From the NCBI GenBank assembly GCA_045605285.1, contig JAZUPR010000019.1, positions 1 to 35,878 on the forward strand: a stretch of 35,878 nucleotides of DNA, in the 5' to 3' direction. Shown here piece after piece: positions 12,575-25,517 of the stretch (positions are counted from its first letter, which is position 1; each line of letters begins with the position of its first letter). The translations under genes and the position numbers were made by a program. Source of the stretch: Clostridia bacterium. GTDB taxonomy: Bacteria > Bacillota > Clostridia > UMGS1810. The notes below the pieces were generated by a model. The model did no database searches. It had not been told where the DNA came from and saw only the letters and a program-made list of their open reading frames with translations.

Positions 12575-13678
12575 TTATTCTATTACTTCTTGTGATGTTT
12601 CTTCCTCTCCAGTCACAGGTTCTCCAGCTATTTCATCTTCTATATCAGAAAAATCTATGCCAAAGAATACTTTCAAAGAGTCAAACACTTCGGGGTTAAG
12701 CTGGCTTATTTTTGATGCAAAAAGGCTTCTGCCACTCTGGTCAAAAGCACTGTACAAGGTAAGAGCATCAGCTATATCACTTGAATAATTAGTATAAACC
12801 GCATCTGTTGTTATTTCGTATTCTGCCTTATCGTCGATTATTTCTCCAAGAACATCTATCACTATTGTGATAATCGCTTGGTGTGGCTCTGTAAATGTAG
12901 ATTTTTTTGATATCAAAACATTTCTTGCAGTAGTAAGCTTTTCTACTATAGTTGCATTTATATTTGTGTAATCAACTGTTTCCTGCGAGCCAGAACCTGA
13001 ACCGGAGCCAGAACCTGAGCCGGAGCCAGAACCTGAGCCACCGCCTATCGAACCACCGGGAACAATAATTGTAGGAGTTTCAACTACAAATCCCGTAAGA
13101 GACATTGCAAGTTCTCCCCTTTTCATATTTTCTGTAGCTCTGAATTTATTCCCGGCTTCTGTCTTCATAAGACCATTTCCAAGAACTTTTTTTACATAAG
13201 CCTCTGCCCATGGAGATATCTTATCAGAAATCACGCCCATATACGGAATATCATACAGATTTGCAACTCTGCAGATTATTGCACACACCTGTTCTCTGGT
13301 AACATATTCATCACCCTTGAATGTACCATCAGGAAATCCGTTTATATATCCCGCTTTTTTACCTATAAGAACGTGCTCATAGTACCATTTATCTTTTGTA
13401 ACATCTGTAAATCCTGTAGTGTCTGCCTCAGTATACTTCCATATACTGTTTATCATTTTACAAAGCTGTGCTCTTGTAAGATTGCCATTTGGCGAGAATG
13501 TTCCATCTCCCATACCGTTTATAATTCCACTGTTTGCGAGTTTATAAATTGCAGTGCCCATATCGGAAGATGCGTCTACATCTTTAAATGTTATTTTATT
13601 GTCAGCATATACTCCGACTGCAGGAATTGATGTAATCATTGCTATTGTTATAAGGATTGATAGAAATTTTTTGAACAT
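12575..13678 (-). CDS. secreted SLH-domain surface protein, 367 aa, with a (GS)n linker
   Basis: Signal peptide MFKKFLSILITIAMITSIPAVGVYA. SLH repeats (FKDVDASS...GDGTFSPNGNLTRAQLCKMI; FTDVTKDKWYYEHV...PDGTFKGDEYVTREQVCAII; a third degenerate copy). GGSIGGGSGSGSGSGSGSGSGSGS linker, then a C-terminal domain of unknown function. Confidence 0.85.
   Translation of the reverse strand: MFKKFLSILITIAMITSIPAVGVYADNKITFKDVDASSDMGTAIYKLANSGIINGMGDGTFSPNGNLTRAQLCKMINSIWKYTEADTTGFTDVTKDKWYYEHVLIGKKAGYINGFPDGTFKGDEYVTREQVCAIICRVANLYDIPYMGVISDKISPWAEAYVKKVLGNGLMKTEAGNKFRATENMKRGELAMSLTGFVVETPTIIVPGGSIGGGSGSGSGSGSGSGSGSGSQETVDYTNINATIVEKLTTARNVLISKKSTFTEPHQAIITIVIDVLGEIIDDKAEYEITTDAVYTNYSSDIADALTLYSAFDQSGRSLFASKISQLNPEVFDSLKVFFGIDFSDIEDEIAGEPVTGEEETSQEVIE
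12988..13041. repeat. 3 x 18-nt tandem repeat encoding the Gly-Ser linker
   Basis: gagccagaacctgaaccg / gagccagaacctgagccg / gagccagaacctgagcca, head to tail. Confidence 0.9.
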
Positions 13679-13702
13679 TTACTTTTCTCCTGTATTTGAT
13701 TA

Positions 13703-13747
13703 TTTTTTGAAAAAATATCCAACGGGAAATCCCCCCCGTTGGATATT
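13703..13747 (-). terminator. rho-independent terminator after the 1331-aa SLH gene, abutting the next gene's RBS
   Basis: AATATCCAACGGG ... CCCGTTGGATATT (13-bp stem). On the minus strand a U-run follows it, then AGGAGAAAAGTA-ATG of the 367-aa gene. Confidence 0.7.
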
Positions 13748-13751
13748 AAAA

Positions 13752-16700
13752 TTAATAGAAGTTTCTCTCGAGGGTTGCAGTATAGTCTACTATTGATTTT
13801 GAATATTTATCAATAATATATTTACCAACTGATGTATCAATCACATCTTTTGATGATGGAGTGAGTTTAGAGCCAATGATGTTTACAACTGTGTCTGCAT
13901 TAAAGATGTTTTCTTCTTCCCTGCCAAATATAATGTCTTCAAATTTTTCAAGGCTTACGCTTATGTCAATTGAATCTATATCCATATCAGCAATTGATGA
14001 AATAATATCTTTGAATTCATCCTCATACTGTGAATAAATTTCATTTATAACAGAAATTTTTGAGAAAATTGCATCAAGTGGTCTTCCTGCAATTGTTCCG
14101 TCAGTATCAAGCTCTGAAATGATGGAAGCAAGTTTTGATATGGAATTATTGATAAGTGTCTCAAATGAAGCATTTGCACTGTCATAATCGCCTGTGTTCA
14201 TTGCATCTATTACAGAGTTTAATCTGTCGCAAAGAGCCTGAAGGTCATCGAATGTATATCCGTTTGGAAGGTTACCCTCTCCAAGGTCTGTGAGAATCTG
14301 TTTTACATTGTCAACTACAGATTTGATAGTGTCTTCATAACCACCTACAGGTGTGCCACCGAGTGAATCTACAACGGTTTTAAGAGAGTCTACCCTTGCA
14401 ATAAGGTCACTGAGAGTATATGAACCAACTATAGGTCTTCCGTTCTCTACATTGTCTGAAAGCTCTTCAAGTTTTTTAATAAATTTCACAAAATCCTTTG
14501 TAAGACTCTTTTTAACAAGAATAAGTTCTTCTTCTGTACAGTTTTGTGTATTATAGAAGCAAAGTGCCTGGTCATAGAGGATAAATGCATCAAGCATTGA
14601 TGTGTAATACTGCATAAAGTCTTTGAAATAATAACCTGTTGCGCCTGTTGTATCATTTATTCTCTGTGAGTCATAGCCTAAAAAAACATTGAACCAATCA
14701 GTTTCTTCTACCAGTTTTTTGAGTGATGTATTCTCGTTATATTTGTAGATGTTATTATTTTTAATTGTATTTGCAAATTTTCCTGAATAGTTTATGTATA
14801 TACCGTGAAGAATGAGTGGTGCATTGATTGTTACAGTAAGGCTGGTTGTATACTCACGCTCAACATTATCTCCCTTAACCGCATCTATAACAGGTCTAAG
14901 GCCATTCCAGTAATCTGCCTTGGCAGCCATGAACATATCTTCTACGATATCTTCTCCAAGGAAATCTATGATATTTCCATAGCCCTTGTCTCTGAGGATT
15001 GTAAGAATTTCATCAAAATCAAATCCGTTAATTGCCTCTCCGACTGCTGATACAAAGTGAATATTGTCCATGTTAACCTTAAAGGATTCTTCCTTATTCT
15101 TAAAGGAATTCATAAAGTTTACAAAAGGTGCATAATTGTCCAGGAAGCTTACGATAGTCTGTGCAAATTGCGGTCTTTCAGTATCGGGGTCCATAGCCAT
15201 TATATGATTTACTATCATATCTACAGTAGCATAGTCCACAACGAGAGCGTCTACCTTTTCATCCGACAATCCTCCAAGATAATCCATAATGAAATTATCA
15301 TCAACAGCATCTAAAATATTTTCATATTTATCGGCAACAAAGCTATCTACAAAATTAGCATTTGCCGGAGTCTGAATAAAGTTGGCTACAGGTGTTATGA
15401 TGTCGTTAACTGCGGCTTCTTTTATTTTTGCGATAAATGGGGTCTTGATGTCTCCCACAAGTGCAATTATATCCGGATTGGTTGCAAGAGTTCCTACTCC
15501 GTTGAAATAGTTTTCTATGAATCTGATGATATTATTTTCAATAAGAGTTTTGATATTTGCATCAATGGTTGTATCTCTGTTTAAATAATCTTTTACAAAA
15601 TCAACAAGTGCATCATTAACATCGTTCTCAGGTAAAGAATTCCAGCCCTGTGAGGTCAATATATCATTAAATGAAGCATCTGACCTGATTATTGCTATAA
15701 TTTCATTTCTTACGCTCGGTTTATCAAGGTTTGAAATAAAAGCATCATTTGCAGCTGTATGTTCTTTTGTGACAACTTCAAGAATCTGTGCTCTGAAACT
15801 GTTGATACCTAAGAGTTCAATAATAAAGGCATTATTGCTTGCAGCAGTGTCAACAAGTGCATCCTTTGCACTTGAAGAAAGAACCTTTTCTATAATATCC
15901 ACTGATTCCTGAAGTGTGCTTGGTACATTAATGTCACCTTTAATTTTATCCTGTATATAGGTTATTCCGTCCAACTTATAGTCATTGCTCTTTAGCTCTG
16001 AACGAATGGCTGGTATACCTACAGACTCTATAAGTGTTCTGCCATCGATATTATCTACAATAGTAGCCATATCAATAAGGCTTACTACAGAGCGAAGTTC
16101 TTCCTCGGAGCCATTGAGCATTGCCTGGATTTTGGTATTTACCTCAGCATTTATCTGGTCATAGTCTATAACGTCAACAATCTTAAGACCATAGTCTTTA
16201 TCCAGAATATTACCCTGGGAATCTACCATTCCTGTTTTTGCGTTTGCTTTATTAAAAGCCGCCTGAATCTTGGAATTAATTTCATTTTTAACATCGGTTT
16301 GACTGAGTGTAAGTCCTGCACTTATCATACCGTCTTTAAGTGTGTCAAAAAATCTTGACTGTGAATCATAGCTGATTTCAAGAACAGGATTTATACCAAA
16401 CACCTGCTTATCAACCTCTGCCACAATATGTTTCTGTCCATAGTAGACATCAATATTTCCGTTAACAGGAGTACTGTTTGTAAACACATCCCAGATACCG
16501 TTTGATTTTTTATAGATAAATTCTTTTCCTACTGTATGTGTATATGTAGCTCCGAGGCCTGTGTATGAAATATCGCTTCTGTCATAAGTCTGGCCTGTTG
16601 TGTCAAGCTTACCTGCATAAATTGTGTCAAGGTTTTTTCCGACATAACTGAGAGTTCGGTTTTCGGCAGGAATTGACTGATTTATATTAACTGTATCAAA

Positions 16701-17747
16701 AACACTTGCAGTGGCACCATTGTGGAATGAAACTGTGTAATAGGTTTCTACACCGCCGCTGTTGCCGCCACCGCTGCTTCCTCCACCGCCAACTGATGCT
16801 TCTTTGAAGGTTGCAGGAGTGTTTAGTATAATATTGTCAAATACATCTTCTGAACGTAAGTTCTCAAAATGAACAGTTCCATTTACGTCATTGATAACAA
16901 CGCCACCGTAAACCTTGGAGGAAATAATTTTAATTCCACCCTCACCGCCTCGGCAAAGGAGTCTGCCTTTAATGATGACATTGTCAAGAATAACTGTGCC
17001 GTTTCCTACTCCATCACCGATGATAAGATCACCCTCAATGGTAATATTTTTAAGAGTTACTCCCGATGTTCTTATAAGTATATTTCCAAATCCAATGGAG
17101 GTTACCTCACCCGGAACAAGGCAATAAACTTTTATAAGATTATATATAAGCTGAGCAAATTCTTCTCTTGTTATATAGTTTTGAGGTTTAAGGTTGCCCT
17201 TGTCATCTCCATTCAAATAGCCATTAATAACAAGCGCAGATGATGCACTCTTTGCCCAATCAGATACAAGATTTCCATCATTAAATTTTAAAAGCGATGA
17301 ATAATCCTCGCTAGAGAGAACAAGTGCTCTCCCTATTGCTACAAAAACCTGTTCTCTGGTTATGTAAGAATCCGGATTCATAGTTGATGCAGAATCACCC
17401 TGGAAGGTTCGCATATTAACTGCCTTTGCAATTTCATCGTAATACCAGTCGCTTTTAGATACATCAGTAAGATGAGATATATCCGCCTTTACAGTTGCAC
17501 CAAAGGCTCTGTTGACAATGGCTGCCATCTCGGCTCTGGTAAGGTTATCCTTAGGATTTATAGTTGAGCTTGTGCGTCCATTTAAAATTCCATTTGCCAC
17601 AGCATGAGTCATAGCATCCTTTGACCAACCCGCGGGGAAGTCTGTAAAGTCTGATACCTGAGCTGCTAACACTGGTGTCACAAGTGTGAAAATCATAGCA
17701 ATCATAGTGATAAAAGCTATGATTTTGCTGTTTGTTCTAAAATACAT
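13752..17747 (-). CDS. large secreted SLH-domain cell-surface protein, 1331 aa
   Basis: Signal peptide (IAFITMIAMIFTLVTPVLAAQV) and three SLH repeats (DFPAGWSKDAM..., LTDVSKSDWYYDEI..., DGNLVSDWAKSA...). Next is a beta-helix-like segment (NITIEGDLIIGDGVGNGTVILDNVIIKGRLL...) and a GGGGSSGGGNSGG linker. The remaining roughly 1000 aa have no motif I recognise. Confidence 0.85.
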   Translation of the reverse strand: MYFRTNSKIIAFITMIAMIFTLVTPVLAAQVSDFTDFPAGWSKDAMTHAVANGILNGRTSSTINPKDNLTRAEMAAIVNRAFGATVKADISHLTDVSKSDWYYDEIAKAVNMRTFQGDSASTMNPDSYITREQVFVAIGRALVLSSEDYSSLLKFNDGNLVSDWAKSASSALVINGYLNGDDKGNLKPQNYITREEFAQLIYNLIKVYCLVPGEVTSIGFGNILIRTSGVTLKNITIEGDLIIGDGVGNGTVILDNVIIKGRLLCRGGEGGIKIISSKVYGGVVINDVNGTVHFENLRSEDVFDNIILNTPATFKEASVGGGGSSGGGNSGGVETYYTVSFHNGATASVFDTVNINQSIPAENRTLSYVGKNLDTIYAGKLDTTGQTYDRSDISYTGLGATYTHTVGKEFIYKKSNGIWDVFTNSTPVNGNIDVYYGQKHIVAEVDKQVFGINPVLEISYDSQSRFFDTLKDGMISAGLTLSQTDVKNEINSKIQAAFNKANAKTGMVDSQGNILDKDYGLKIVDVIDYDQINAEVNTKIQAMLNGSEEELRSVVSLIDMATIVDNIDGRTLIESVGIPAIRSELKSNDYKLDGITYIQDKIKGDINVPSTLQESVDIIEKVLSSSAKDALVDTAASNNAFIIELLGINSFRAQILEVVTKEHTAANDAFISNLDKPSVRNEIIAIIRSDASFNDILTSQGWNSLPENDVNDALVDFVKDYLNRDTTIDANIKTLIENNIIRFIENYFNGVGTLATNPDIIALVGDIKTPFIAKIKEAAVNDIITPVANFIQTPANANFVDSFVADKYENILDAVDDNFIMDYLGGLSDEKVDALVVDYATVDMIVNHIMAMDPDTERPQFAQTIVSFLDNYAPFVNFMNSFKNKEESFKVNMDNIHFVSAVGEAINGFDFDEILTILRDKGYGNIIDFLGEDIVEDMFMAAKADYWNGLRPVIDAVKGDNVEREYTTSLTVTINAPLILHGIYINYSGKFANTIKNNNIYKYNENTSLKKLVEETDWFNVFLGYDSQRINDTTGATGYYFKDFMQYYTSMLDAFILYDQALCFYNTQNCTEEELILVKKSLTKDFVKFIKKLEELSDNVENGRPIVGSYTLSDLIARVDSLKTVVDSLGGTPVGGYEDTIKSVVDNVKQILTDLGEGNLPNGYTFDDLQALCDRLNSVIDAMNTGDYDSANASFETLINNSISKLASIISELDTDGTIAGRPLDAIFSKISVINEIYSQYEDEFKDIISSIADMDIDSIDISVSLEKFEDIIFGREEENIFNADTVVNIIGSKLTPSSKDVIDTSVGKYIIDKYSKSIVDYTATLERNFY

Positions 17748-17832
17748 TTGAATCCACTCCTTAACAAAATTTATGTAATATTTTTATAAACAAAAATTCA
17801 TGTGGGTATATTCTCCCAGCTATACATATTAT

Positions 17833-17861
17833 ATTTTACAATTTTTAAGGTGAAAAGTCAA
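17833..17861 (-). promoter_or_regulatory. candidate sigma-A promoter for the 1331-aa SLH gene
   Basis: Minus strand: TTGACT, 17 nt, TAAAAT. Confidence 0.5.
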
Positions 17862-17974
17862 GCTAATAGCTCAATTTTATAGGTTTTGCACATACTTTTT
17901 ATCCTAAATTTGTTATATTATTTTCAGCATATTTTTATATAAATTGCATAGGTAAAATTTCAAGAAAAATAACA

Positions 17975-18012
17975 TAAAAAAAAAACACCACTGATTTTAG
18001 AATCAGTGGTGT
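17975..18012 (-). terminator. rho-independent terminator after the HU gene
   Basis: ACACCACTGATT-TTAG-AATCAGTGGTGT (12 bp), flanked by long A/T runs on both sides. The U-run follows it on the minus strand. Confidence 0.85.
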
Positions 18013-18029
18013 TTTTTTATTAAGGTTAA

Positions 18030-18302
18030 TTATTTAACAGCTTCTTTAAGGCCTTTACCTACTTTAAAAGCAGGAACTGTAGCAGCAGGGATGTCAATAA
18101 CAGCGCCTGTCTGTGGGTTTTTACCCTTTCTAGCAGCTCTCTTCTTTGTTTCGAATGAGCCAAAACCAACGAGAACAACTTTCTCGCCATTTTTCAAGCC
18201 TTCTGTTACGCTTTCAACAAAAGCATTTAATGCTTTTTCAGCATCTTTTTTGCTAAGTTCAGCTTTTTCAGCCATTTTAGCAATCAATTCTGTTTTATTC
18301 AT
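18030..18302 (-). CDS. hup: HU-family nucleoid-associated DNA-binding protein, 90 aa
   Basis: MNKTELI...LVGFGSFETKKRAARKGKNPQTGAVIDIPA...PAFKVGKGLKEAV is the canonical HU sequence. AGGAGG RBS. Confidence 0.95.
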   Translation of the reverse strand: MNKTELIAKMAEKAELSKKDAEKALNAFVESVTEGLKNGEKVVLVGFGSFETKKRAARKGKNPQTGAVIDIPAATVPAFKVGKGLKEAVK

Positions 18303-18338
18303 TACCTTACTACCTCCTAATAATTTTGGTATAAATGT

Positions 18339-18367
18339 ATTATATCAAATATTTCCACACCTTGCAA
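18339..18367 (-). promoter_or_regulatory. candidate sigma-A promoter for hup
   Basis: Minus strand: TTGCAA, 17 nt, TATAAT. Confidence 0.55.
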
Positions 18368-18450
18368 TAGTTATTATATACAAATTTATTCGTAGATTTA
18401 TTTGAATAGGACTGATTTTTTTGTTGTTTTTGTCAAATTTTCACAAAAAT

Positions 18451-20094
18451 CTATTTAACAGCTACAATTTTGTTGACACCTGCGTTTTCGGGGCCGTAGA
18501 ACACACCGTCAAGCTTACCGCCTGTTTCAATATCAACAAAAATTGTCATTCCGCTTTTAACAGTAATATCCTCTACATTTTCTGCAATTGTAAAAAGCTT
18601 TGATAGCTTTGTATTCTCAGGTACAGATTTTATATCCAATTTTACTCTGTATGTATACCCGTCTCCGTTATTTATAACAAGGCTTGGATAAAAGTTGATA
18701 TCCACTTTATAACCTGCCAAATTCATTTCCTTTGCAATAATAGACAACATATTGGTATAGATAAGGGAGTACTGTCTTGCATTATAATAAGCATTTTTGG
18801 CAATTCCAATTCTTTCGCCCTTATCATATGTTATAAATTCCGTATTATATATATCATTCGGAATATCATTCAATATAAGTGCGTAATCCTGGTGATTTTT
18901 CGGATATGAGTTAATATTGGTGCGGAGTTTCTCGCTCCTTTTATAAGTCTTATCTGAGAAAACAGTCTTTTTTGAAAATCCACAGATTGAATCAGCCTGA
19001 ATAATAAGGTTGGTAATCTGTTTTAATGTGGCTTTTTCACCGGCCTTTATCTTACCATCTTTATACGGGAATATGCCATTTTTCTTGGCAAAGGAGAGCA
19101 CTTTGTTACGGGTTTCGCTACCTGCATTGGTTATGTCAGCATAGTAATTATCCTTATCTCCAAAACCAAGATTTATATCTGCAGTTTTAGCCAATGCAAA
19201 GGATACTGCACAAACAGCATCTTCCATAGTTGCGGTTGCATCAATGTAGGTTTCGTTAACCTTATCTTCACCTATGCAGTATTTTCCATATACATTGAGA
19301 GAACGTACATATTTATGCTGGAACGGGTCTTCGCTATAAGAAAAATTTGAATACTTTGGATCATGCTCGTTGCATATAAGCCTCATTGCCATATGTGCAA
19401 GTTCACCATTTGTTACGGTTGCATCAGACTTATATTCTTTATCATCGAAAAGATTAAAGCTATCATACACAGCTTTATATACCTCATCGCTGATATTATC
19501 TATAAAATCTTTCCCTGAAACAGATGCATTTTCTCTGGCTCTTACAATAAGAGCAGCGGCCTCTGCTCTGGTGAGAGAACTGTCGAGACGAAGGTTTATG
19601 TAGTCGTCACCCATCATAATTTCACGACTATATATCCATGCAATAGCATCTGAATTTTTTCCCTGTCTTGTAATGACAGAAGGAACTGATTCTGAAACAA
19701 CTGGCGAACCATTTCTTTTCCAAAGAAGATTTGCCACATCGCCACGGGTAATGGCCTCATTTGGCTTAAATGCAAATTCAGTTACAGGCTCAAGTCCCGA
19801 TGACATTACATAGTCATAAAACCAATCGCTTTTTTCTACATCGACATACTCTGATTGAGTGACAGTGTTGCCTTTGCCAATCATTTTTACAAATTCAGCT
19901 CTTGAAACAGTTGAATTCGGCTTGAATGTACCGTCTGTAAAACCATTTATTGTGCCCTCTCCCACAAGCTTGTTTACAGCATTATACGCCCAATGACCGG
20001 ATGATAAATCCTTGAAGGATGCGGCAGACACAGTAATAGCCGACGGAATCAGCATTGCTATCACAAGAAAAACTGCCAAAATTCTTTTTTTCAT
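18451..20094 (-). CDS. secreted SLH-domain surface protein, 547 aa
   Basis: Signal peptide (KKRILAVFLVIAMLIPSAITVSAA). SLH repeats (FKDLSSGHWAYNAVNKLV...TDGTFKPNSTVSRAEFVKMI; YVDVEKSDWFYDYV...; a third around NSDAIAWIYSREIM...SSLTRAEAAALIV). The C-terminal roughly 350 aa are unassigned. Start moves to ATG 20094 with AAAGGAG 9 nt upstream. The track start at 20100 is a TTG. Confidence 0.85.
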   Translation of the reverse strand: MKKRILAVFLVIAMLIPSAITVSAASFKDLSSGHWAYNAVNKLVGEGTINGFTDGTFKPNSTVSRAEFVKMIGKGNTVTQSEYVDVEKSDWFYDYVMSSGLEPVTEFAFKPNEAITRGDVANLLWKRNGSPVVSESVPSVITRQGKNSDAIAWIYSREIMMGDDYINLRLDSSLTRAEAAALIVRARENASVSGKDFIDNISDEVYKAVYDSFNLFDDKEYKSDATVTNGELAHMAMRLICNEHDPKYSNFSYSEDPFQHKYVRSLNVYGKYCIGEDKVNETYIDATATMEDAVCAVSFALAKTADINLGFGDKDNYYADITNAGSETRNKVLSFAKKNGIFPYKDGKIKAGEKATLKQITNLIIQADSICGFSKKTVFSDKTYKRSEKLRTNINSYPKNHQDYALILNDIPNDIYNTEFITYDKGERIGIAKNAYYNARQYSLIYTNMLSIIAKEMNLAGYKVDINFYPSLVINNGDGYTYRVKLDIKSVPENTKLSKLFTIAENVEDITVKSGMTIFVDIETGGKLDGVFYGPENAGVNKIVAVK

Positions 20095-20115
20095 AATCAA
20101 AATCTCCTTTAAAAG

Positions 20116-20970
20116 TTATTCAAGTATCTTAAAAGATGTAAATGCAGCCTCCGGCTCCATATTGCATCTTAATTTGTATATAGGAACGTTTTTCAATATT
20201 TCTCCTATAATAGAAAGTGCGTGCTCTACAAGTTCCGAATCAAACGGAGTTTTTATCTGATCCATTATAAGTGGAAATGCCTGCAGTGACGAAATTTTTT
20301 CTATGGAATTTTCCTTATCTCTTTGAAGGAAAACTATAGCCTTAAGGGGAACAGATATATTATTGTTTATTCCGGAAGAACCGGCAAAAGGTGTGCCTGA
20401 TATATAGATTTTTTCGTCTTTCTTAAAAATAAGAGGGGTATCGTCATTTATGTATTGACAATCCGGTATATGCTTTATCCAGAGGGATGTATGAGTTGAT
20501 TTTCCAACTCCCGAATCCGCTGAAAAAGCTATACCTCTGCCATTATGCGAAACAGCTGACGAGTGATATACAAGCGAGCCATTTGTTAATGCAATAAAAT
20601 GAAATATATGAGAGAGAGTATTGATAAAAAATGCTCCGTCGTCAATTCCAAGATTTGTCTTTATATCATAAGAATTGAAGACAATATTTTTAAAACTCTT
20701 ATCAAAATCCACCTTAACTACTGCACCCTCTACCTCAGGAAAAAATATGTAATAAGACCTGGTGCCCTCAATACTCGTCCACAATTCATAATCCCATTTT
20801 GCAACAATATTTTCGTCGGGAACAGGGAAAGTGTGGTCGAAAAATTTAATATTTATAGTAGAATGTACACTATCACAATTATGCTGATATTTTTTTAATT
20901 CACTCAGTACATATTCATTTTGACAACCAACGATAGCCAAATTGATATTTCCTATTTTATATGTATACAT
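20116..20970 (-). CDS. HPr-kinase-C-terminal-like P-loop protein (HprK-related kinase family), 284 aa
   Basis: LVYHSSAVSHNGRGIAFSADSGVGKSTHTSLW followed by INDDTPLI and SGTPFAGSSG. This matches the H-x-S-A-V...G-x-x-G-x-G-K-S-T P-loop plus DD arrangement of HprK-like kinases. Its stop is 21 nt from the start of the SLH gene, with that gene's RBS in between. Confidence 0.6.
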   Translation of the reverse strand: MYTYKIGNINLAIVGCQNEYVLSELKKYQHNCDSVHSTINIKFFDHTFPVPDENIVAKWDYELWTSIEGTRSYYIFFPEVEGAVVKVDFDKSFKNIVFNSYDIKTNLGIDDGAFFINTLSHIFHFIALTNGSLVYHSSAVSHNGRGIAFSADSGVGKSTHTSLWIKHIPDCQYINDDTPLIFKKDEKIYISGTPFAGSSGINNNISVPLKAIVFLQRDKENSIEKISSLQAFPLIMDQIKTPFDSELVEHALSIIGEILKNVPIYKLRCNMEPEAAFTSFKILE

Positions 20971-21060: not shown

Positions 21061-21094
21061 GCAACAAAAAGGCAGTGTCAACACGACACTGCCT
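21061..21094 (-). terminator. rho-independent terminator after the 60-aa peptide gene
   Basis: AGGCAGTGTC-AACAC-GACACTGCCT (perfect 10-bp stem, 5-nt loop), followed on the minus strand by TTTTGTTGC. Confidence 0.8.
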
Positions 21095-21126
21095 TAATAT
21101 ATTTACGAAAAATAATTTAATTCAAA

Positions 21127-21309
21127 TTAACCATTTACCTTCTTTATAACAGATATCTGTGCTGTAGCATAAGAAGTAAGTGAAACTGATTTGTTTGGTG
21201 TGCTACCAAAACCAAATGTACGTGTTTCTTTTTTTGATGTCAATTTGCTCAATGATTCTTTAATAGATAACTCTACAATTTCTGCAGATGGTTTAATATA
21301 TTTTTTCAT
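21127..21309 (-). CDS. 60-aa peptide, candidate RiPP-type precursor
   Basis: MKKYIKPSAEIVELSIKESLSKLTSKKETRTFGFGSTPNKSVSLTSYATAQISVIKKVNG. AGGAGGA RBS 9-10 nt upstream of the ATG, and a dedicated terminator 33 nt after the stop. Has a Y4-x-x-P7 motif near the N-terminus and a Ser/Thr-rich C-terminal half. Confidence 0.6.
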   Translation of the reverse strand: MKKYIKPSAEIVELSIKESLSKLTSKKETRTFGFGSTPNKSVSLTSYATAQISVIKKVNG

Positions 21310-21368
21310 GTTCCTTATTCCTCCTATTGAATTTACTTGTTCTTAATTAATTAAAATGTGGTTCGTCA

Positions 21369-22277
21369 TTATTTCCAATACGGAACAAGTGTCACATCAC
21401 TCATATCTTCAGCTGCAAGAAGAACTGCATAGTAGCCATCAGTAACACCAAGTGATTTATAATATCCGCCAGTTGGTTCCTCAGGATCAAGCTCAAATGC
21501 TTCGCCAGCCTTTGTAGCATATACTCCATACTCTGTTACCTCACTCACATCTCCTGTAATCTGACAGAGCAAGTATCTATATTCGAGTTCATTTCCCTCA
21601 GCCGTAACCACTGCATTAAAGTCTGCTGAATCAACAGCAACAGAGGTTATAGCTACAGGGCTTGATGTATTAACAGTTTTAATCTCAACAACGTTGCCTG
21701 CTTTTACAGTAAATCCTCCTACTGTAAGTTCCTGCTCATCGCCATCAATTTTAACTGATGAAAGTTCATAACCTTCTTTAACATTTACAGTCAAGAAACC
21801 ATCCTCTGTGTTACCTAATGTATAAGGATAGTCTATAATATTAAGTTCGCTATCTTTAACTTCATAAGAATCAACACCAGCATCTGTAGTGATTGTAACT
21901 CCTGCTGCACTAACTGTTTGGTTAGCATATACTCTAAGTCCTGCAGCTACATCTGGATCAACTGAACCATAAAGGATCTGAGCAGTATTTGATGTAAGTG
22001 CATCGTATTCAAATTTTATTGTGCCACCATCGGACTCTACCTGATTTATATAAACGATATCAGCTTCTTTTTCAACTGTACCATTTACACTTGCAAGGTA
22101 TGTAACCATAACGCCTTTTTCAACGCCTGAAACAGTAGAAACAACGTGTGGCTTCTGGCTTGTTTCGTTATAGGTTGTAAGTGTTGATGCTGTGGCAGCA
22201 AATGATGTTACGGTTGTTGTTAACATAGCAACTGTGATTGCAGTAACTGCAATTGTTTTAAACAAATTATTTTTCAT
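21369..22277 (-). CDS. secreted protein of unknown function, 302 aa
   Basis: Start moves to MKNNLFK (ATG 22277, AGGAG upstream) because the predicted promoter would place the transcript start at about the track ATG. Signal peptide KTIAVTAITVAMLTTTVTSFAATAS. The sequence is beta-rich and has no SLH repeats or other motif I can name. Confidence 0.7.
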   Translation of the reverse strand: MKNNLFKTIAVTAITVAMLTTTVTSFAATASTLTTYNETSQKPHVVSTVSGVEKGVMVTYLASVNGTVEKEADIVYINQVESDGGTIKFEYDALTSNTAQILYGSVDPDVAAGLRVYANQTVSAAGVTITTDAGVDSYEVKDSELNIIDYPYTLGNTEDGFLTVNVKEGYELSSVKIDGDEQELTVGGFTVKAGNVVEIKTVNTSSPVAITSVAVDSADFNAVVTAEGNELEYRYLLCQITGDVSEVTEYGVYATKAGEAFELDPEEPTGGYYKSLGVTDGYYAVLLAAEDMSDVTLVPYWK

Positions 22278-22310
22278 TGTATAAACACTCCTATCTTCAT
22301 TCATATAATG

Positions 22311-22339
22311 ATTCTATCAAAAATCAAATTGAATGTCAA
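22311..22339 (-). promoter_or_regulatory. candidate sigma-A promoter for the secreted-protein/peptide unit
   Basis: Minus strand: TTGACA, 17 nt, TAGAAT. Confidence 0.55.
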
Positions 22340-22434: not shown

Positions 22435-24066
22435 TTATTCACAAACACATCCATCTTTTATATGTAAAATCCTGTCACATATATCACGAGTATTTTGTCT
22501 GTGTGTAATTATAATGCAGGTTTTATCGTTCATATTCTTAATTTTGGAAACAACTTCCTTTTCTGTGTCTTCATCAAGGGCTGAGGTGGCCTCATCGAGA
22601 AGAATTACAGGGCGTGACGAGTAAAAAGCTCTTGCCAGGGCAAGTCTTTGAATCTGGCCCTCGGAAAGACCGAGTCCTCCTTCTCCCAGAAGGGTGTCAA
22701 ATCCATCGGGTAGTGTCATTATATAATCATATATACACGCATCCTCAGAGGCTTTTTTCAATCTTTCACAGTCAATATCACAACAGGAAAACGCTATGTT
22801 TTCTTTTATGGTTCCGGAAAATATCATATTCCCCTGTGGCACATATGCAAACAGCTCCTTTGATGGCGGATAAGCACAATTTTCGTTTTCGCTCTCAGCA
22901 TACACCTTCCCCTTGTCGGGCTTTATAACACCCATAAGCAAAAGCATCATCGTGCTCTTTCCCGCTCCGGAGCTACCCACAACAGCAACAGTATCACCTT
23001 TGTTTATCACGAGGTCTGCATCTTTAAGAATATATTCTTCATTATATGAAAAATCAACATCCTTAAATACTAATGAAGAAAAGCTTCTATTTATATATGT
23101 AGTTTTTTCTTCTATATTTTCAAGCTCCATGATTCTCTCGGCAGATGCTGACATAGAATAATACCCCGATATTAAGGACGAAAATTCCTTAAAGGGAATC
23201 TGAAGCTGGTCTACAAGCTGAAGAACAGCCATAAGTGTTCCTACGGTCATTATACCGATAGAAATTTTATAAGAACACCAGATAAGAGCCAGATAATAAC
23301 CAAAGGTCATAATAACAAAAAACAAAAGATTTGCAAGAATGGTTATTATACCTCTTTTTACACTTACCTTGTAATTATCCGTTTGATATTTTTTTAGCTT
23401 TGATACTGAGAATGCCTCTTTTACAAAAGTCTTTATGGCAAGGATATTTTGTATGCTCTCTTGCATATACGATTTTACCACACCGGAGGTATGCTGACAT
23501 TTTTTATGCAGGGGTTTTATCTTTTTTCCGTACAGTCTGGTGGCAATTGATACCATCGGAAAAACAATTATGCACACAACTGCAAGGTCTTTATCTATAA
23601 TAAAGAGTGCTCCAAGGCTGAATAAAAACTGAGTGGCAGTTGTAAAAAACTGAGGAACAATTGACATAATGCCATCAGAAACCACAGACACATCGCTTGT
23701 AAGTCTGTTTACAAGTTCACCGGAGTGCACATCTGACACCTTTTGGTAATCACCGTTTAAAACAGCAGAAAAGGAGCTAAGCTGAATATTGTGAAAGAGT
23801 CTTACAGATACCCTCACTTCAACCACCGTGTAGACAATGTGAATGAGAATCTGGCCAAGCATTAAGAGTGCAAGAGTAATTACAGGCTGTGACAGGGACA
23901 TATCGAGAGTGCCGGTTGCCACATCAATAACGGTTTTTGATGCAAAAGCAAACCTTACTGACAGATAAGACATTGCCATCCCCAAAAAAGAAAGGAAAAT
24001 AATTTTGCACAATTCTTTTTTTGATTTCTGAAAAATCCATGAAAAAGCAGTTTTATCTTTTGCCAC
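22435..24066 (-). CDS. ABC exporter half-transporter (N-terminal 6-TM domain fused to an NBD), 543 aa
   Basis: Walker A GSSGAGKST, signature LSEGQIQRLALARA, Walker B ILLDEATSALD, H-loop ITHR. Hydrophobic N-terminal half with no C39 peptidase domain. GTG start with AAGGAGG 7 nt upstream, overlapping the peptidase gene by 14 nt. Confidence 0.9.
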   Translation of the reverse strand: MAKDKTAFSWIFQKSKKELCKIIFLSFLGMAMSYLSVRFAFASKTVIDVATGTLDMSLSQPVITLALLMLGQILIHIVYTVVEVRVSVRLFHNIQLSSFSAVLNGDYQKVSDVHSGELVNRLTSDVSVVSDGIMSIVPQFFTTATQFLFSLGALFIIDKDLAVVCIIVFPMVSIATRLYGKKIKPLHKKCQHTSGVVKSYMQESIQNILAIKTFVKEAFSVSKLKKYQTDNYKVSVKRGIITILANLLFFVIMTFGYYLALIWCSYKISIGIMTVGTLMAVLQLVDQLQIPFKEFSSLISGYYSMSASAERIMELENIEEKTTYINRSFSSLVFKDVDFSYNEEYILKDADLVINKGDTVAVVGSSGAGKSTMMLLLMGVIKPDKGKVYAESENENCAYPPSKELFAYVPQGNMIFSGTIKENIAFSCCDIDCERLKKASEDACIYDYIMTLPDGFDTLLGEGGLGLSEGQIQRLALARAFYSSRPVILLDEATSALDEDTEKEVVSKIKNMNDKTCIIITHRQNTRDICDRILHIKDGCVCE

Positions 24067-24523
24067 AGAACAACCTCCTTATTCTTATGAGAACCTCAAG
24101 GATAATGCGTCTTAGAGGGAAAACAAATACCCACACACGAGAATACAGCTTATAAACGGGATTGCCCGGGTCTATTTCAATCCCTTTTCTTGTAAAGCCT
24201 ACGACCTTTGCTATTATCTGAGATTTTTCCACTCCATATTCTTTTTCTGTTTCATTATCACCCGCAATTATATATGTTCCGTTTTTTATGCCGATTACAC
24301 GATGCAAAATATAATCTCCGTCTTTTCGACGATGAAGTACCACGTCATATTTCTTTATATGGTCTGCATTCCCTACGGTTACCTGGTCTCTTCTGTTGGA
24401 GAGAAACGGGAACATACTTATCCCTGTGACGGTAAACCTCACCTTGCCGCCGGAATTTACCTTCTCTTCAATCACAGGTGCAATATCACCAATACTGAAC
24501 TCAATCTTTTCTACATCAACCAT
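24053..24523 (-). CDS. S24/S26-family serine peptidase, S26B (SipW/ER-type Ser-His)-like, 156 aa
   Basis: GISMFPFL (nucleophile Ser box), YILHRVIGI (His in the position of the S26A Lys box) and IIAGDNE (GDN box). There is no N-terminal hydrophobic anchor. The ATG immediately follows the TAA of the PqqD-like gene (GAATAAATGG). Confidence 0.65.
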   Translation of the reverse strand: MVDVEKIEFSIGDIAPVIEEKVNSGGKVRFTVTGISMFPFLSNRRDQVTVGNADHIKKYDVVLHRRKDGDYILHRVIGIKNGTYIIAGDNETEKEYGVEKSQIIAKVVGFTRKGIEIDPGNPVYKLYSRVWVFVFPLRRIILEVLIRIRRLFCGKR

Positions 24524-24787
24524 TTATTCAATTACCTTTTTTTCTTTAAGTATATTTACAAATTCGCAAACATCGTTATACGCCACATCTTTGCTAACTT
24601 CAAACTCAGAGCACATTTTATCAACTACAAAATCTATGTCTGAGTCTTCCATAAGGAGATTCCATATAAAAGCTCCTGTTTCATTGATTGTAATCATAGC
24701 TGAAAAATCAAGAAGATTTTCTCCTGACGGAACTATAACGTATGTATCGGCAACATTTCTTAATTCAAAGCCTTTTGAAATTTTCAT
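24524..24787 (-). CDS. PqqD-family protein (RiPP recognition element-type), 87 aa
   Basis: MKISKGFELRNVADTYVIVPSGENLLDFSAMITINETGAFIWNLL...FVVDKMCSEFEVSKDVAYNDVCEFVNILKEKKVIE. Size and pattern (beta strands, then LNETGAFIW, then a helical tail) are typical of PqqD/RRE. Start set at ATG 24787 (GGAAAGGA upstream). The track's extension to 24892 would run through the predicted promoter and into a terminator. Confidence 0.7.
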   Translation of the reverse strand: MKISKGFELRNVADTYVIVPSGENLLDFSAMITINETGAFIWNLLMEDSDIDFVVDKMCSEFEVSKDVAYNDVCEFVNILKEKKVIE

Positions 24788-24830: not shown

Positions 24831-24859
24831 ATTTTATCATAGGAAGATAAGGTTGTCAA
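24831..24859 (-). promoter_or_regulatory. candidate sigma-A promoter for the PqqD-peptidase-ABC operon
   Basis: Minus strand: TTGACA, 17 nt, TAAAAT. Confidence 0.6.
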
Positions 24860-24995: not shown

Positions 24996-25430
24996 TTAAA
25001 GATATGCTTTAAGGTCTCTTCGAAGACTCTCTTCAATATCAATAAGTCTTCTGGTGGCTTGAATCACATCTCTGTCTGCAGCCGGATATTTATTAAGATA
25101 TTTATGAAGAGACTTTATTCCCATATCGCATCCGTCGGTCATAAGGTCTGCAACAACTTTATCCGTCTCTTTTGCAGCAAGTTTTACATTAATTTTCATC
25201 CAGGACATTCCCTTTGCCATAGGATTTGGCTCTCCCTCAGGAGCATCAAACTTAGACAAAAGCCTATGCAAATCCTTATCAAGCTCTGTATGTCCCTCTT
25301 TTGAGTGATGCAAAATCTCGCGAAGGTCGTCACTATCTACCCTGTCAATAACCTCGTCTATGGAACTGATGCCCATCTTTACCCCTGAATCACATTCTCT
25401 CAAAAGTTCTATAGTATCGTTTTTTTCCAT
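24996..25430 (-). CDS. hypothetical all-helical cytoplasmic protein, 144 aa
   Basis: Clean ORF with an AAAGGGTGGG RBS and its own terminator. Charged, helix-prone sequence with no catalytic motif recognised. Confidence 0.6.
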   Translation of the reverse strand: MEKNDTIELLRECDSGVKMGISSIDEVIDRVDSDDLREILHHSKEGHTELDKDLHRLLSKFDAPEGEPNPMAKGMSWMKINVKLAAKETDKVVADLMTDGCDMGIKSLHKYLNKYPAADRDVIQATRRLIDIEESLRRDLKAYL

Positions 25431-25480: not shown

Positions 25481-25517
25481 CAAAAAAGACACCCATTCTC
25501 TTTGAGAACGGGTGTCT
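25481..25517 (-). terminator. rho-independent terminator after the QueT-like gene
   Basis: Minus-strand RNA: GACACCCGUUCUC-AAA-GAGAAUGGGUGUC (13 bp with one G.U) followed by UUUUUUGG. Confidence 0.75.

Follow-up and report, generated by a model that had tools for sequence, protein, structure and literature searches.

A small peptide of gut Clostridia as the probable precursor of a linear peptide made by a pathway related to that of linear polyphosphorylated peptides

What is made from a 60-residue open reading frame (ORF) that lies, together with a handful of peptide-processing genes, in contig JAZUPR010000019.1 of a Clostridia bacterium (assembly GCA_045605285.1; GTDB lineage UMGS1810)? The whole contig of 35,878 nt, hereafter the window, was analyzed; apart from the neighborhood of this ORF and an adjoining group of surface-protein genes, it holds housekeeping genes (rpoB/C, spoIVA, PBP, ftsEX and others). 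The original prediction, made from the sequence alone, held that the ORF encodes a peptide with a YxxP leader, of the kind bound by the recognition proteins of peptides synthesized ribosomally and modified post-translationally (RiPPs). Here, we find that the ORF is a genuine gene, and that it probably encodes the precursor of a ribosomally made, processed linear peptide whose pathway is a Clostridial relative of that of the linear polyphosphorylated peptides (LPPs).

The LPPs were described by Popov et al. (Nat Commun 2026; PMC13381572), in a study that began from an archaeal-type signal peptidase found in lasso peptide clusters of Bacilli and that reports the lppA-K-B-S-D-N gene cluster of Paenibacillus alginolyticus. 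The core genes encode a peptidase resembling signal peptidase I (SpI), LppS, along with the recognition protein LppB, the HprK-like kinase LppK, the MsbA-like exporter LppD, and the NTP-transferase LppN (PMC13381572). LPP precursors comprise 35-200 residues, with a conserved N-terminal YxxPxVLxHQxIxFETxxS motif and variable C-termini (PMC13381572). LppK was shown experimentally to add several phosphates to Ser3 of the core, and LppS cuts off the 27-residue leader after F-E-T in an LppB-dependent manner; the peptidase cleaves an unphosphorylated precursor poorly (PMC13381572). Tyr at -16 and Pro at -13 are required for LppB binding, as are Phe at -3, Glu at -2 and Thr at -1 for leader cleavage (PMC13381572).

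The peptide gene and its family

The 60-aa ORF occupies positions 21309..21127 on the minus strand, and its translation agrees exactly with the peptide quoted in the original prediction, including Y4, P7, and an A48-T49-A50 motif followed by QISVIKKVNG. A word-indexed search returned six homologues with 60-74% identity, while a profile search of 1.84 billion cluster-representative proteins matched 30 cluster representatives. In species-representative genomes, 24 loci carrying the peptide were found, each from a different species and all with an intact ORF (24/24); they come without exception from metagenome-assembled genomes of uncultured Clostridia of the gut or rumen, of which one bears the title Oscillospiraceae and another Eubacteriales. 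The family alignment holds 60 distinct sequences. Relative to the window, the leader codons show 177 synonymous and 221 non-synonymous differences; because synonymous differences occur in many places, selection acts on the protein rather than the DNA, which settles the earlier concern that only the DNA might be conserved. Searches of Pfam and NCBIfam with the peptide gave no family even at E=10, and a search of the PDB with its profile gave chance matches only, with no LppA leader chain among them.

The expression signals are similarly well kept. A Shine-Dalgarno (SD) site, AGGAGGA, is read directly at 21319..21325 on the minus strand, leaving approximately 10 nt between the end of GGAGG and the ATG, and an SD-like site stands at the same position in all 26 oriented copies of the gene that were examined (26/26). 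An intrinsic terminator lies at 21069..21095 on the same strand, its stem of 11-12 bp (6 G-C pairs) beginning 31-33 nt past the stop codon and running into the tail TTTTGTTGC; of the terminator-like sites across the 7.6 kb scanned, it is one of the strongest two, and a hairpin with a T-run recurs in 23/26 oriented copies, the stem sequence varying with lineage. Thus, both the strong ribosome-binding site and the private terminator that had been proposed for this gene are borne out. The hairpin closes a transcription unit comprising the peptide gene and the gene of a secreted protein immediately upstream. A terminator of this kind suits the usual arrangement, wherein the precursor transcript is far more abundant than the transcripts for the enzymes. 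In two of the three copies without a terminator, a second tandem peptide gene comes next. Two tandem paralogous genes are found in each of L013:9278-9689 and L015:9983-10394 (L numbers denote loci), with leaders that are alike (…VVELSVKE… and …VIEMAV[KR]E…) and cores that differ. Differing cores are common among paralogues in precursor families.

To locate leader and core, the 60 family members were anchored on Y-x-x-P and numbered as in LPP, with Tyr at -16. Both Tyr (-16) and Pro (-13) are invariant (60/60 each). Position -3 (residue 17) is Lys or Arg and position -2 (E18) is Glu in 59/60 members each, followed by Ser at -1 in 45/60, Leu or Ile at +1 in 55/60, and Ser at +2 in 47/60, where Ala occurs in 11/60. 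Column entropy does not exceed 2.4 bits through +5 and is at least 3.3 bits from +6 onward, so that a conserved block spanning -19 to +5 ends at about residue 24. The family consensus, MKKY[TI]KPxxxVVELSVKESLSALP, is thus followed by a variable part of approximately 35 residues, in which Thr, Ser, Lys, Gly and Asn abound and Cys is essentially missing; a semi-conserved h-[ST]-h-Y motif lies 8-14 residues before the C-terminus. Because the N-terminal ~24 residues are conserved and the rest varies, the N-terminus is taken to be the leader. The earlier assignment of the YxxP end as leader is therefore upheld, and the variable segment proves to be the C-terminal one.

From family conservation and the LPP spacing, residues 1-19 (MKKYIKPSAEIVELSIKES; 21253..21309, minus strand) are predicted to form the leader and residues 20-60 (LSKLTSKKETRTFGFGSTPNKSVSLTSYATAQISVIKKVNG; 21130..21252, minus strand) the core, a basic stretch of 41 residues (pI 10.4) with 13 Ser/Thr and no Cys. 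Y4 and P7 most likely constitute the motif bound by the recognition protein. The spacing of Y, P and E-[S/T] is identical to that in LPP leaders, and K17-E18-S19 is on this ground the predicted cleavage determinant, with the cut predicted at KES19/L20. S21 is the best candidate phospho-acceptor. The original prediction had instead looked to the Ser and Thr residues of the C-terminal half as possible phosphorylation targets; the LPP precedent is a single Ser near the cleavage site that receives several phosphates, and the 30 residues from T31, credited with 12 Ser/Thr, contain nine (9/30). Since the peptide has no hydrophobic segment of the Sec type (maximum Kyte-Doolittle hydropathy, KD(11), 0.82), it is not a Sec substrate. 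It has neither the hydrophobic core nor the conserved A-x-A of a type I signal peptidase substrate, and it is not a double-glycine precursor either, the leader carrying no GG motif and the transporter encoded nearby no C39 domain.

The genes around the peptide

In the window, the genes of the neighborhood are all on the minus strand, in the order PqqD, S26 peptidase, ABC exporter, secreted protein, peptide, kinase, SLH protein. Promoter-like sites and the terminator divide them into three units, namely PqqD-S26-ABC, secreted protein-peptide, and kinase-SLH. The putative promoter ahead of the first unit (24831..24859, minus strand; TTGACA-17-TAAAAT with TG) and that ahead of the second (22311..22339, minus strand; TTGACA-17-TAGAAT with an extended TG) each match the consensus at 11/12 positions. 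The PqqD-like protein of 87 aa, the S26-like peptidase and the HprK-like protein named in the original prediction are all present.

Linkage was measured over the 24 genome loci. Of the 20 whose upstream flank reaches 4 kb or more, 17 carry PqqD and S26 genes upstream of the peptide, accompanied by the ABC gene in 16/17, and the kinase gene lies downstream in 16 of the 22 loci with enough sequence on that side, at a distance of 115-525 nt in 14 loci. The proposal that homologues of the peptide would sit beside PqqD, S26 and HprK-like genes thus holds for most loci and not for all. The most constant partner was not among the companions proposed: it is the secreted-protein family, a homologue of which directly precedes the peptide gene in L001 and in 24/24 genome loci, hence in 25/25 distinct loci.

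The recognition protein (87 aa; 24524..24787, minus strand; PF05402, E=1.6e-16) starts at M36 of a longer ORF, a choice supported by the family alignment. Its family profile matches the lasso B1 protein TbiB1 at 8e-11 and both LppB (9x8z) and PbaB1 (9x90) at 1.9e-5; it is thus equally far from LppB and PbaB1 and nearer to TbiB1. Comparison with LppB by hhalign gave a probability of 96% and aligned N33, D70 and F74 of LppB with Asn, Asp and Phe of the window protein, the Asn and Asp being invariant across the recognition-protein family alignment. In the LppB crystal structure (9x8z), N33 fixes the kink at P-13, D70 hydrogen-bonds Y-16, and F74 sandwiches the proline (PMC13381572). The description of this protein as a PqqD-like RiPP recognition element can accordingly be sharpened to the lasso-B1/LppB type, with the residues that contact P-13 and Y-16 retained.

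Directly abutting this gene (24524/24523) is that of a SipW/archaeal-type S26 peptidase resembling LppS (156 aa; 24053..24523, minus strand). Its match to TIGR02228 (E=1.2e-7) falls below the model cut-off, and its GxSMxP and HRV motifs are those that mark ER/archaeal-type (SipW-like) signal peptidases. An N-terminal membrane anchor is lacking, the sole helix of note being C-terminal and amphipathic/hydrophobic. BLASTP aligned it with LppS at 25% identity (E=2e-11), pairing S36 and H74 with the catalytic S29 and H68 of LppS, and a conserved Glu, E95, with D93. It is 36% identical to peptidases from Anaerocolumna and an 'uncultured Ruminococcus' that belong to clusters 4 and 9 of the sequence similarity network (SSN) in the LPP study (PMC13381572). 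By analogy, this enzyme is most likely the leader peptidase. The ABC gene (22435..24066, minus strand), which overlaps the S26 gene by 14 nt, encodes a 543-aa MsbA-like exporter akin to LppD, with ABC_membrane (PF00664) and ABC_tran (PF00005) as its only domains and TIGR02204 and TIGR02203 as its best NCBIfam matches.

Downstream of the peptide, a 284-aa protein (20116..20970, minus strand) is a putative kinase with the fold and motifs of HprK/P, as judged from its model. Its ScmC and HprK-related matches (TIGR04355 at 3e-6, TIGR04249 at 7e-5, and TIGR04352) are all far below the model cut-offs, and its homologues carry a precomputed PF27840 annotation. A search of the PDB with the sequence profile alone was not significant; the relationship came from the fold search, in which the model (predicted local distance difference test score, pLDDT, 94) found HprK/P as its top Foldseek matches with probability 1.0. 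In alignment, the His, Walker A and ADD motifs of HprK/P have their counterparts in H136, the SADSGVGKST P-loop, and N175-D176-D177. A literature search on 'ScmC' and 'SynChlorMet' yielded unrelated acronyms only.

The kinase gene is followed by that of a 549-aa SLH-domain cell-wall protein (18451..20100, minus strand; PF00395), and an SLH gene comes next in every kinase-bearing locus with enough downstream sequence. This includes L006:8001-10534 and L007:1171-3704, where the kinase-SLH pair stands beside rpoB/C and HU and none of the peptide, PqqD and S26 genes lies within 8 kb. The kinase may thus have a role that is coupled to the SLH protein and does not require the peptide. In the window, 12575-20100 of the minus strand holds three SLH proteins (367, 1331 and 549 aa) and an HU gene, and more SLH and LRR proteins are encoded in L001, which is syntenic; this region is a cell-surface protein island adjoining rpoB/C.

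The secreted partner is a 311-aa Sec-secreted protein (21369..22304, minus strand) with no match in Pfam or NCBIfam. The proteins found upstream of the peptide across the loci form a single BLASTP cluster of 200-340 aa. The model is all-beta, with approximately three tandem Ig-like sandwich domains at moderate confidence (pLDDT 66), and a fold search returned generic Ig-like or adhesin matches only, with low TM-scores. The mature N-termini of these partners (window, L010-L033) are Thr-rich and end in Tyr, as in …TLTTYNETS… and …TTTTTYDF…. They bear a superficial likeness to the h-[ST]-h-Y motif near the C-terminus of the peptide. Mimicry of this N-terminus by the C-terminal 'LT[TS]Y' of the peptide, as in strand donation, was considered and rejected, the best 8-mer match coinciding with it in only a few loci; since a sliding 8-mer comparison did not single out the N-terminus, the resemblance is taken to be compositional.

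Next upstream of the PqqD gene comes a gene for 144 aa (24996..25430, minus strand) that matches DUF2383 weakly and is preceded by a strong terminator-like hairpin (25517..25487). This gene is probably not part of the peptide system because it is kept in L001, L002 and L019 only.

The proposed pathway and the alternatives

How might these proteins act on the peptide? In the pathway that we favor, a two-gene transcript for the secreted protein and the peptide would end at its own terminator, and the peptide would be translated from it. The 87-aa PqqD-type protein would bind the leader via Y4 and P7. The HprK-fold kinase would phosphorylate a Ser near the leader/core junction, S21 being the best candidate, possibly several times. 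The recognition protein would present the leader end to the soluble SipW-type peptidase for a cut after K17-E18-S19, and the MsbA-like transporter would export the core of 41 residues, which is basic and rich in Ser/Thr. For this locus, the analysis shows conservation, gene content, folds and catalytic motifs, and the register of the leader motifs; binding, the site of the cut, phosphorylation and export are inferred by analogy with the characterized LPP system. Outside the cell, the product would probably act with two proteins encoded alongside it, the secreted one and the SLH-anchored one, a conjecture drawn from gene linkage.

Independent support comes from a distant cassette. L008:8001-11100, and L009 in the same manner, encode kinase, PqqD, S26 and ABC contiguously, the S26 protein being 37% identical to that of the window and the kinase falling in a cluster (P0103) of 554 member sequences. 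Approximately 0.9 kb upstream of the cassette, L008:6955-7077 (plus strand) encodes a 40-aa peptide, MKQIYSAPDFDVSVYEVEDVITLSVGTGPVEGGGDGWIEI, with YxxP and, at -2, an acidic residue. The same machinery seems to serve a second precursor family, apparently undescribed, and an unrelated YxxP peptide stands beside the same four functions. It directly follows a 395-aa secreted protein with no relation to that of the window detectable by BLASTP or profile comparison. The host of L008/L009 is a very common gut organism; dockerin/cohesin genes lie nearby, and a Wzz/BY-kinase gene lies downstream of the L008 cassette.

Several observations weigh against this pathway. In 3/20 loci (L020, L023 and L032), the 10 kb around the peptide contain no PqqD or S26 gene, and in 6/22 (L010, L011, L012, L018, L019 and L021) they contain no kinase gene. 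An NTP_transf_5 protein (LppN) was not found among ORFs of at least 110 aa in the 35.9-kb window. The match of the leader to LPP leaders reaches only 38% probability in hhalign, over 14 columns and in the MKKYxKP part alone, and the conserved Ser occupies +2 instead of +3, with Ala there in some members. Because the kinase is always paired with an SLH protein, even where the peptide is absent (L006), it may serve another substrate. Finally, the function of the invariable secreted partner is not accounted for by the scheme.

That last point invites a bolder view of the product. The strict pairings of peptide with secreted protein and of kinase with SLH protein suggest, as a conjecture, a role in the cell envelope, which recalls the link of LPP genes to capsule loci and the biofilm idea put forward for them (PMC13381572). 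The mature, probably phosphorylated peptide could then be a dedicated envelope component, working with or attached to the secreted and SLH proteins, an idea that we advance only tentatively. If true, the locus would encode a surface module of gut Clostridia, built on a peptide and serving assembly or charge, rather than a free antimicrobial, and would give a first functional handle on the purpose of LPP-type peptides.

The pairing of kinase and SLH genes can also be read more austerely, with the PqqD protein and the S26 peptidase removing the leader of an otherwise unmodified peptide, whose core the ABC transporter would export. Because kinase linkage to the peptide is incomplete (16/22) and the kinase-SLH pair exists alone in L006 and L007, the HprK-like protein and the SLH protein could form a module of their own that leaves the peptide untouched, in keeping with the terminator and the promoter-like site between the peptide and kinase genes. 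This is unlikely, given that the kinase is joined in one cassette with PqqD, S26 and ABC genes in L008 and L009 and keeps so close to the peptide in 14 loci. In LPP, moreover, the four functions act together, and the peptidase acts poorly on a precursor that has not been phosphorylated (PMC13381572).

The constancy of the secreted protein, the sole neighbor retained in 25/25 distinct loci, points to yet another alternative, in which the peptide would be its small partner (an assembly, capping or regulatory subunit) and the processing genes would merely deliver it. The shared unit with its conserved terminator and the strand-like h-[ST]-h-Y motif of the core are consistent with such a role. No sequence relationship between the core and the mature N-terminus of the secreted protein survived testing, and the leader/core pattern with its invariant YxxP is typical of precursors bound by recognition proteins. 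We therefore consider a bare partner subunit quite improbable, noting that this reading is partly compatible with the processed-peptide pathway and not exclusive of it.

A lasso peptide precursor served by a cyclase and B2 protease encoded elsewhere in the genome is a very remote prospect. It is suggested by the YxxP leader and by TbiB1, a lasso B1 protein, as the best solved relative of the recognition protein. No lasso cyclase, B2 protease, radical-SAM enzyme or nucleotidyltransferase is present among the window ORFs, and a lasso product is deemed so unlikely because an asparagine-synthetase-like cyclase and a transglutaminase-like B2 protease are lacking there. In addition, the S26 gene takes the place of B2 directly after the recognition-protein gene, an arrangement that in LPP yields linear products (PMC13381572). 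Least credible of all is the proposed S26 cut after A48-T49-A50, which would free QISVIKKVNG as a C-terminal end product or leave the N-terminal part as the one retained: the motif suits the classical -3/-1 rule of type I signal peptidases, but this reading is rejected: even close homologues do not keep the site (they have STK or ATK), the C-terminal ten residues are among the most variable, and the characterized homologous peptidase cuts at the leader end, after F-E-T (PMC13381572).

Comparison with known systems

The preferred reading, a processed linear peptide, can be set against four known systems. SynChlorMet (Scm) and HprK-related kinase A/B cassettes likewise combine an HprK-fold P-loop protein with a PqqD-like protein in a peptide-maturation context; unlike them, the window encodes no radical-SAM/SPASM enzymes. 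Like the SipW/TasA system, the locus has a peptidase with the Ser-His (HRV) signature that marks ER/archaeal-type S26B enzymes, encoded near secreted proteins. In contrast to that system, the peptidase here is without an N-terminal membrane anchor and the peptide without a Sec-type hydrophobic signal, while the Sec signal peptide of the secreted neighbor is ordinary and needs no dedicated enzyme.

Closer still are the phosphorylated lasso peptides of the paeninodin type (PadeA/K/B1/B2/C/D), in which a discrete B1 recognition protein binds a [Y/W]xxP leader, the precursor is the substrate of an HprK-like kinase, and an ABC exporter is present. The window has the leader and the B1-type recognition protein of a lasso system, with Tyr in place of the Trp typical of paeninodin, but neither the cyclase nor the B2 cysteine protease; the product must for this reason be linear.

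The parallels with LPP are the most extensive. In both systems, a SipW/archaeal-type S26 leader peptidase is encoded next to a discrete PqqD-type recognition protein, the cluster also holds genes for an HprK-like kinase and an MsbA-like exporter, there is no macrolactam cyclase, and a short precursor joins a conserved N-terminal YxxP leader to a variable Cys-free core. The register is ungapped (Y4=-16, P7=-13, E18=-2, S19=-1), with K-E-[S/N/T] where LPP has F-E-T. The window kinase also matches the TIGRFAM group (TIGR04249, TIGR04352, TIGR04355) by which the LPP study defined its 'HprK kinase' (PMC13381572).

The two systems differ in other respects. The leader here, Y[TI]KPxxxVVELSVKESLSALP, departs from the LPP motif by replacement of V-L, H-Q and F, and the peptidase is nearer to SSN clusters 4 and 9 than to LppS. 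The hosts are uncultured gut Clostridia rather than Bacilli, and the genes fall into three separable units with two extra conserved partners, the Ig-like-modeled secreted protein and the SLH protein. LPP genes have been associated with capsule loci, with speculation on biofilms (PMC13381572), whereas the cluster described here is not in a capsule locus.

In the LPP study, the entries for SSN clusters 4 and 9 give 'others' for the recognition protein and 'ND' (not determined) for the precursor (PMC13381572). Supplementary Data 1 of that study pairs S26 peptidases with recognition proteins in SSN clusters 4, 6, 8 and 9, all with precursors 'ND', from Desulfitobacteriaceae, Lachnospiraceae, Ruminococcus, Brocadiales and Bacteroidales, some Bacteroidales examples being fused to an ABC transporter (PMC13381572). 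From these pairs, the module of recognition protein and SpI appears far broader than the characterized LPP clade. The present locus supplies a precursor family for such Clostridial pairs.

The general type of system is thus already known (PMC13381572), and the main idea of the original prediction was right in outline. New are a precursor family absent from Pfam and NCBIfam, the Clostridial host range, the missing nucleotidyltransferase, the three-unit organization, and the two conserved extracellular partner proteins. LPPs were described almost entirely from Bacilli; among uncultured Clostridia of gut and rumen, a divergent branch proves to be widespread. Its secreted and SLH partners make the question of what LPP peptides do testable as hypotheses about the cell surface, and the Y, P, E-[S/T] register common to two otherwise unalignable leaders offers a simple cleavage-site rule for SpI-type leader peptidases. 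Because its components and register match those of LPP while its leader, Ser position and NTP_transf_5 content differ, the system is LPP-like in mechanism and a divergent variant that stands outside the characterized LPP cluster.

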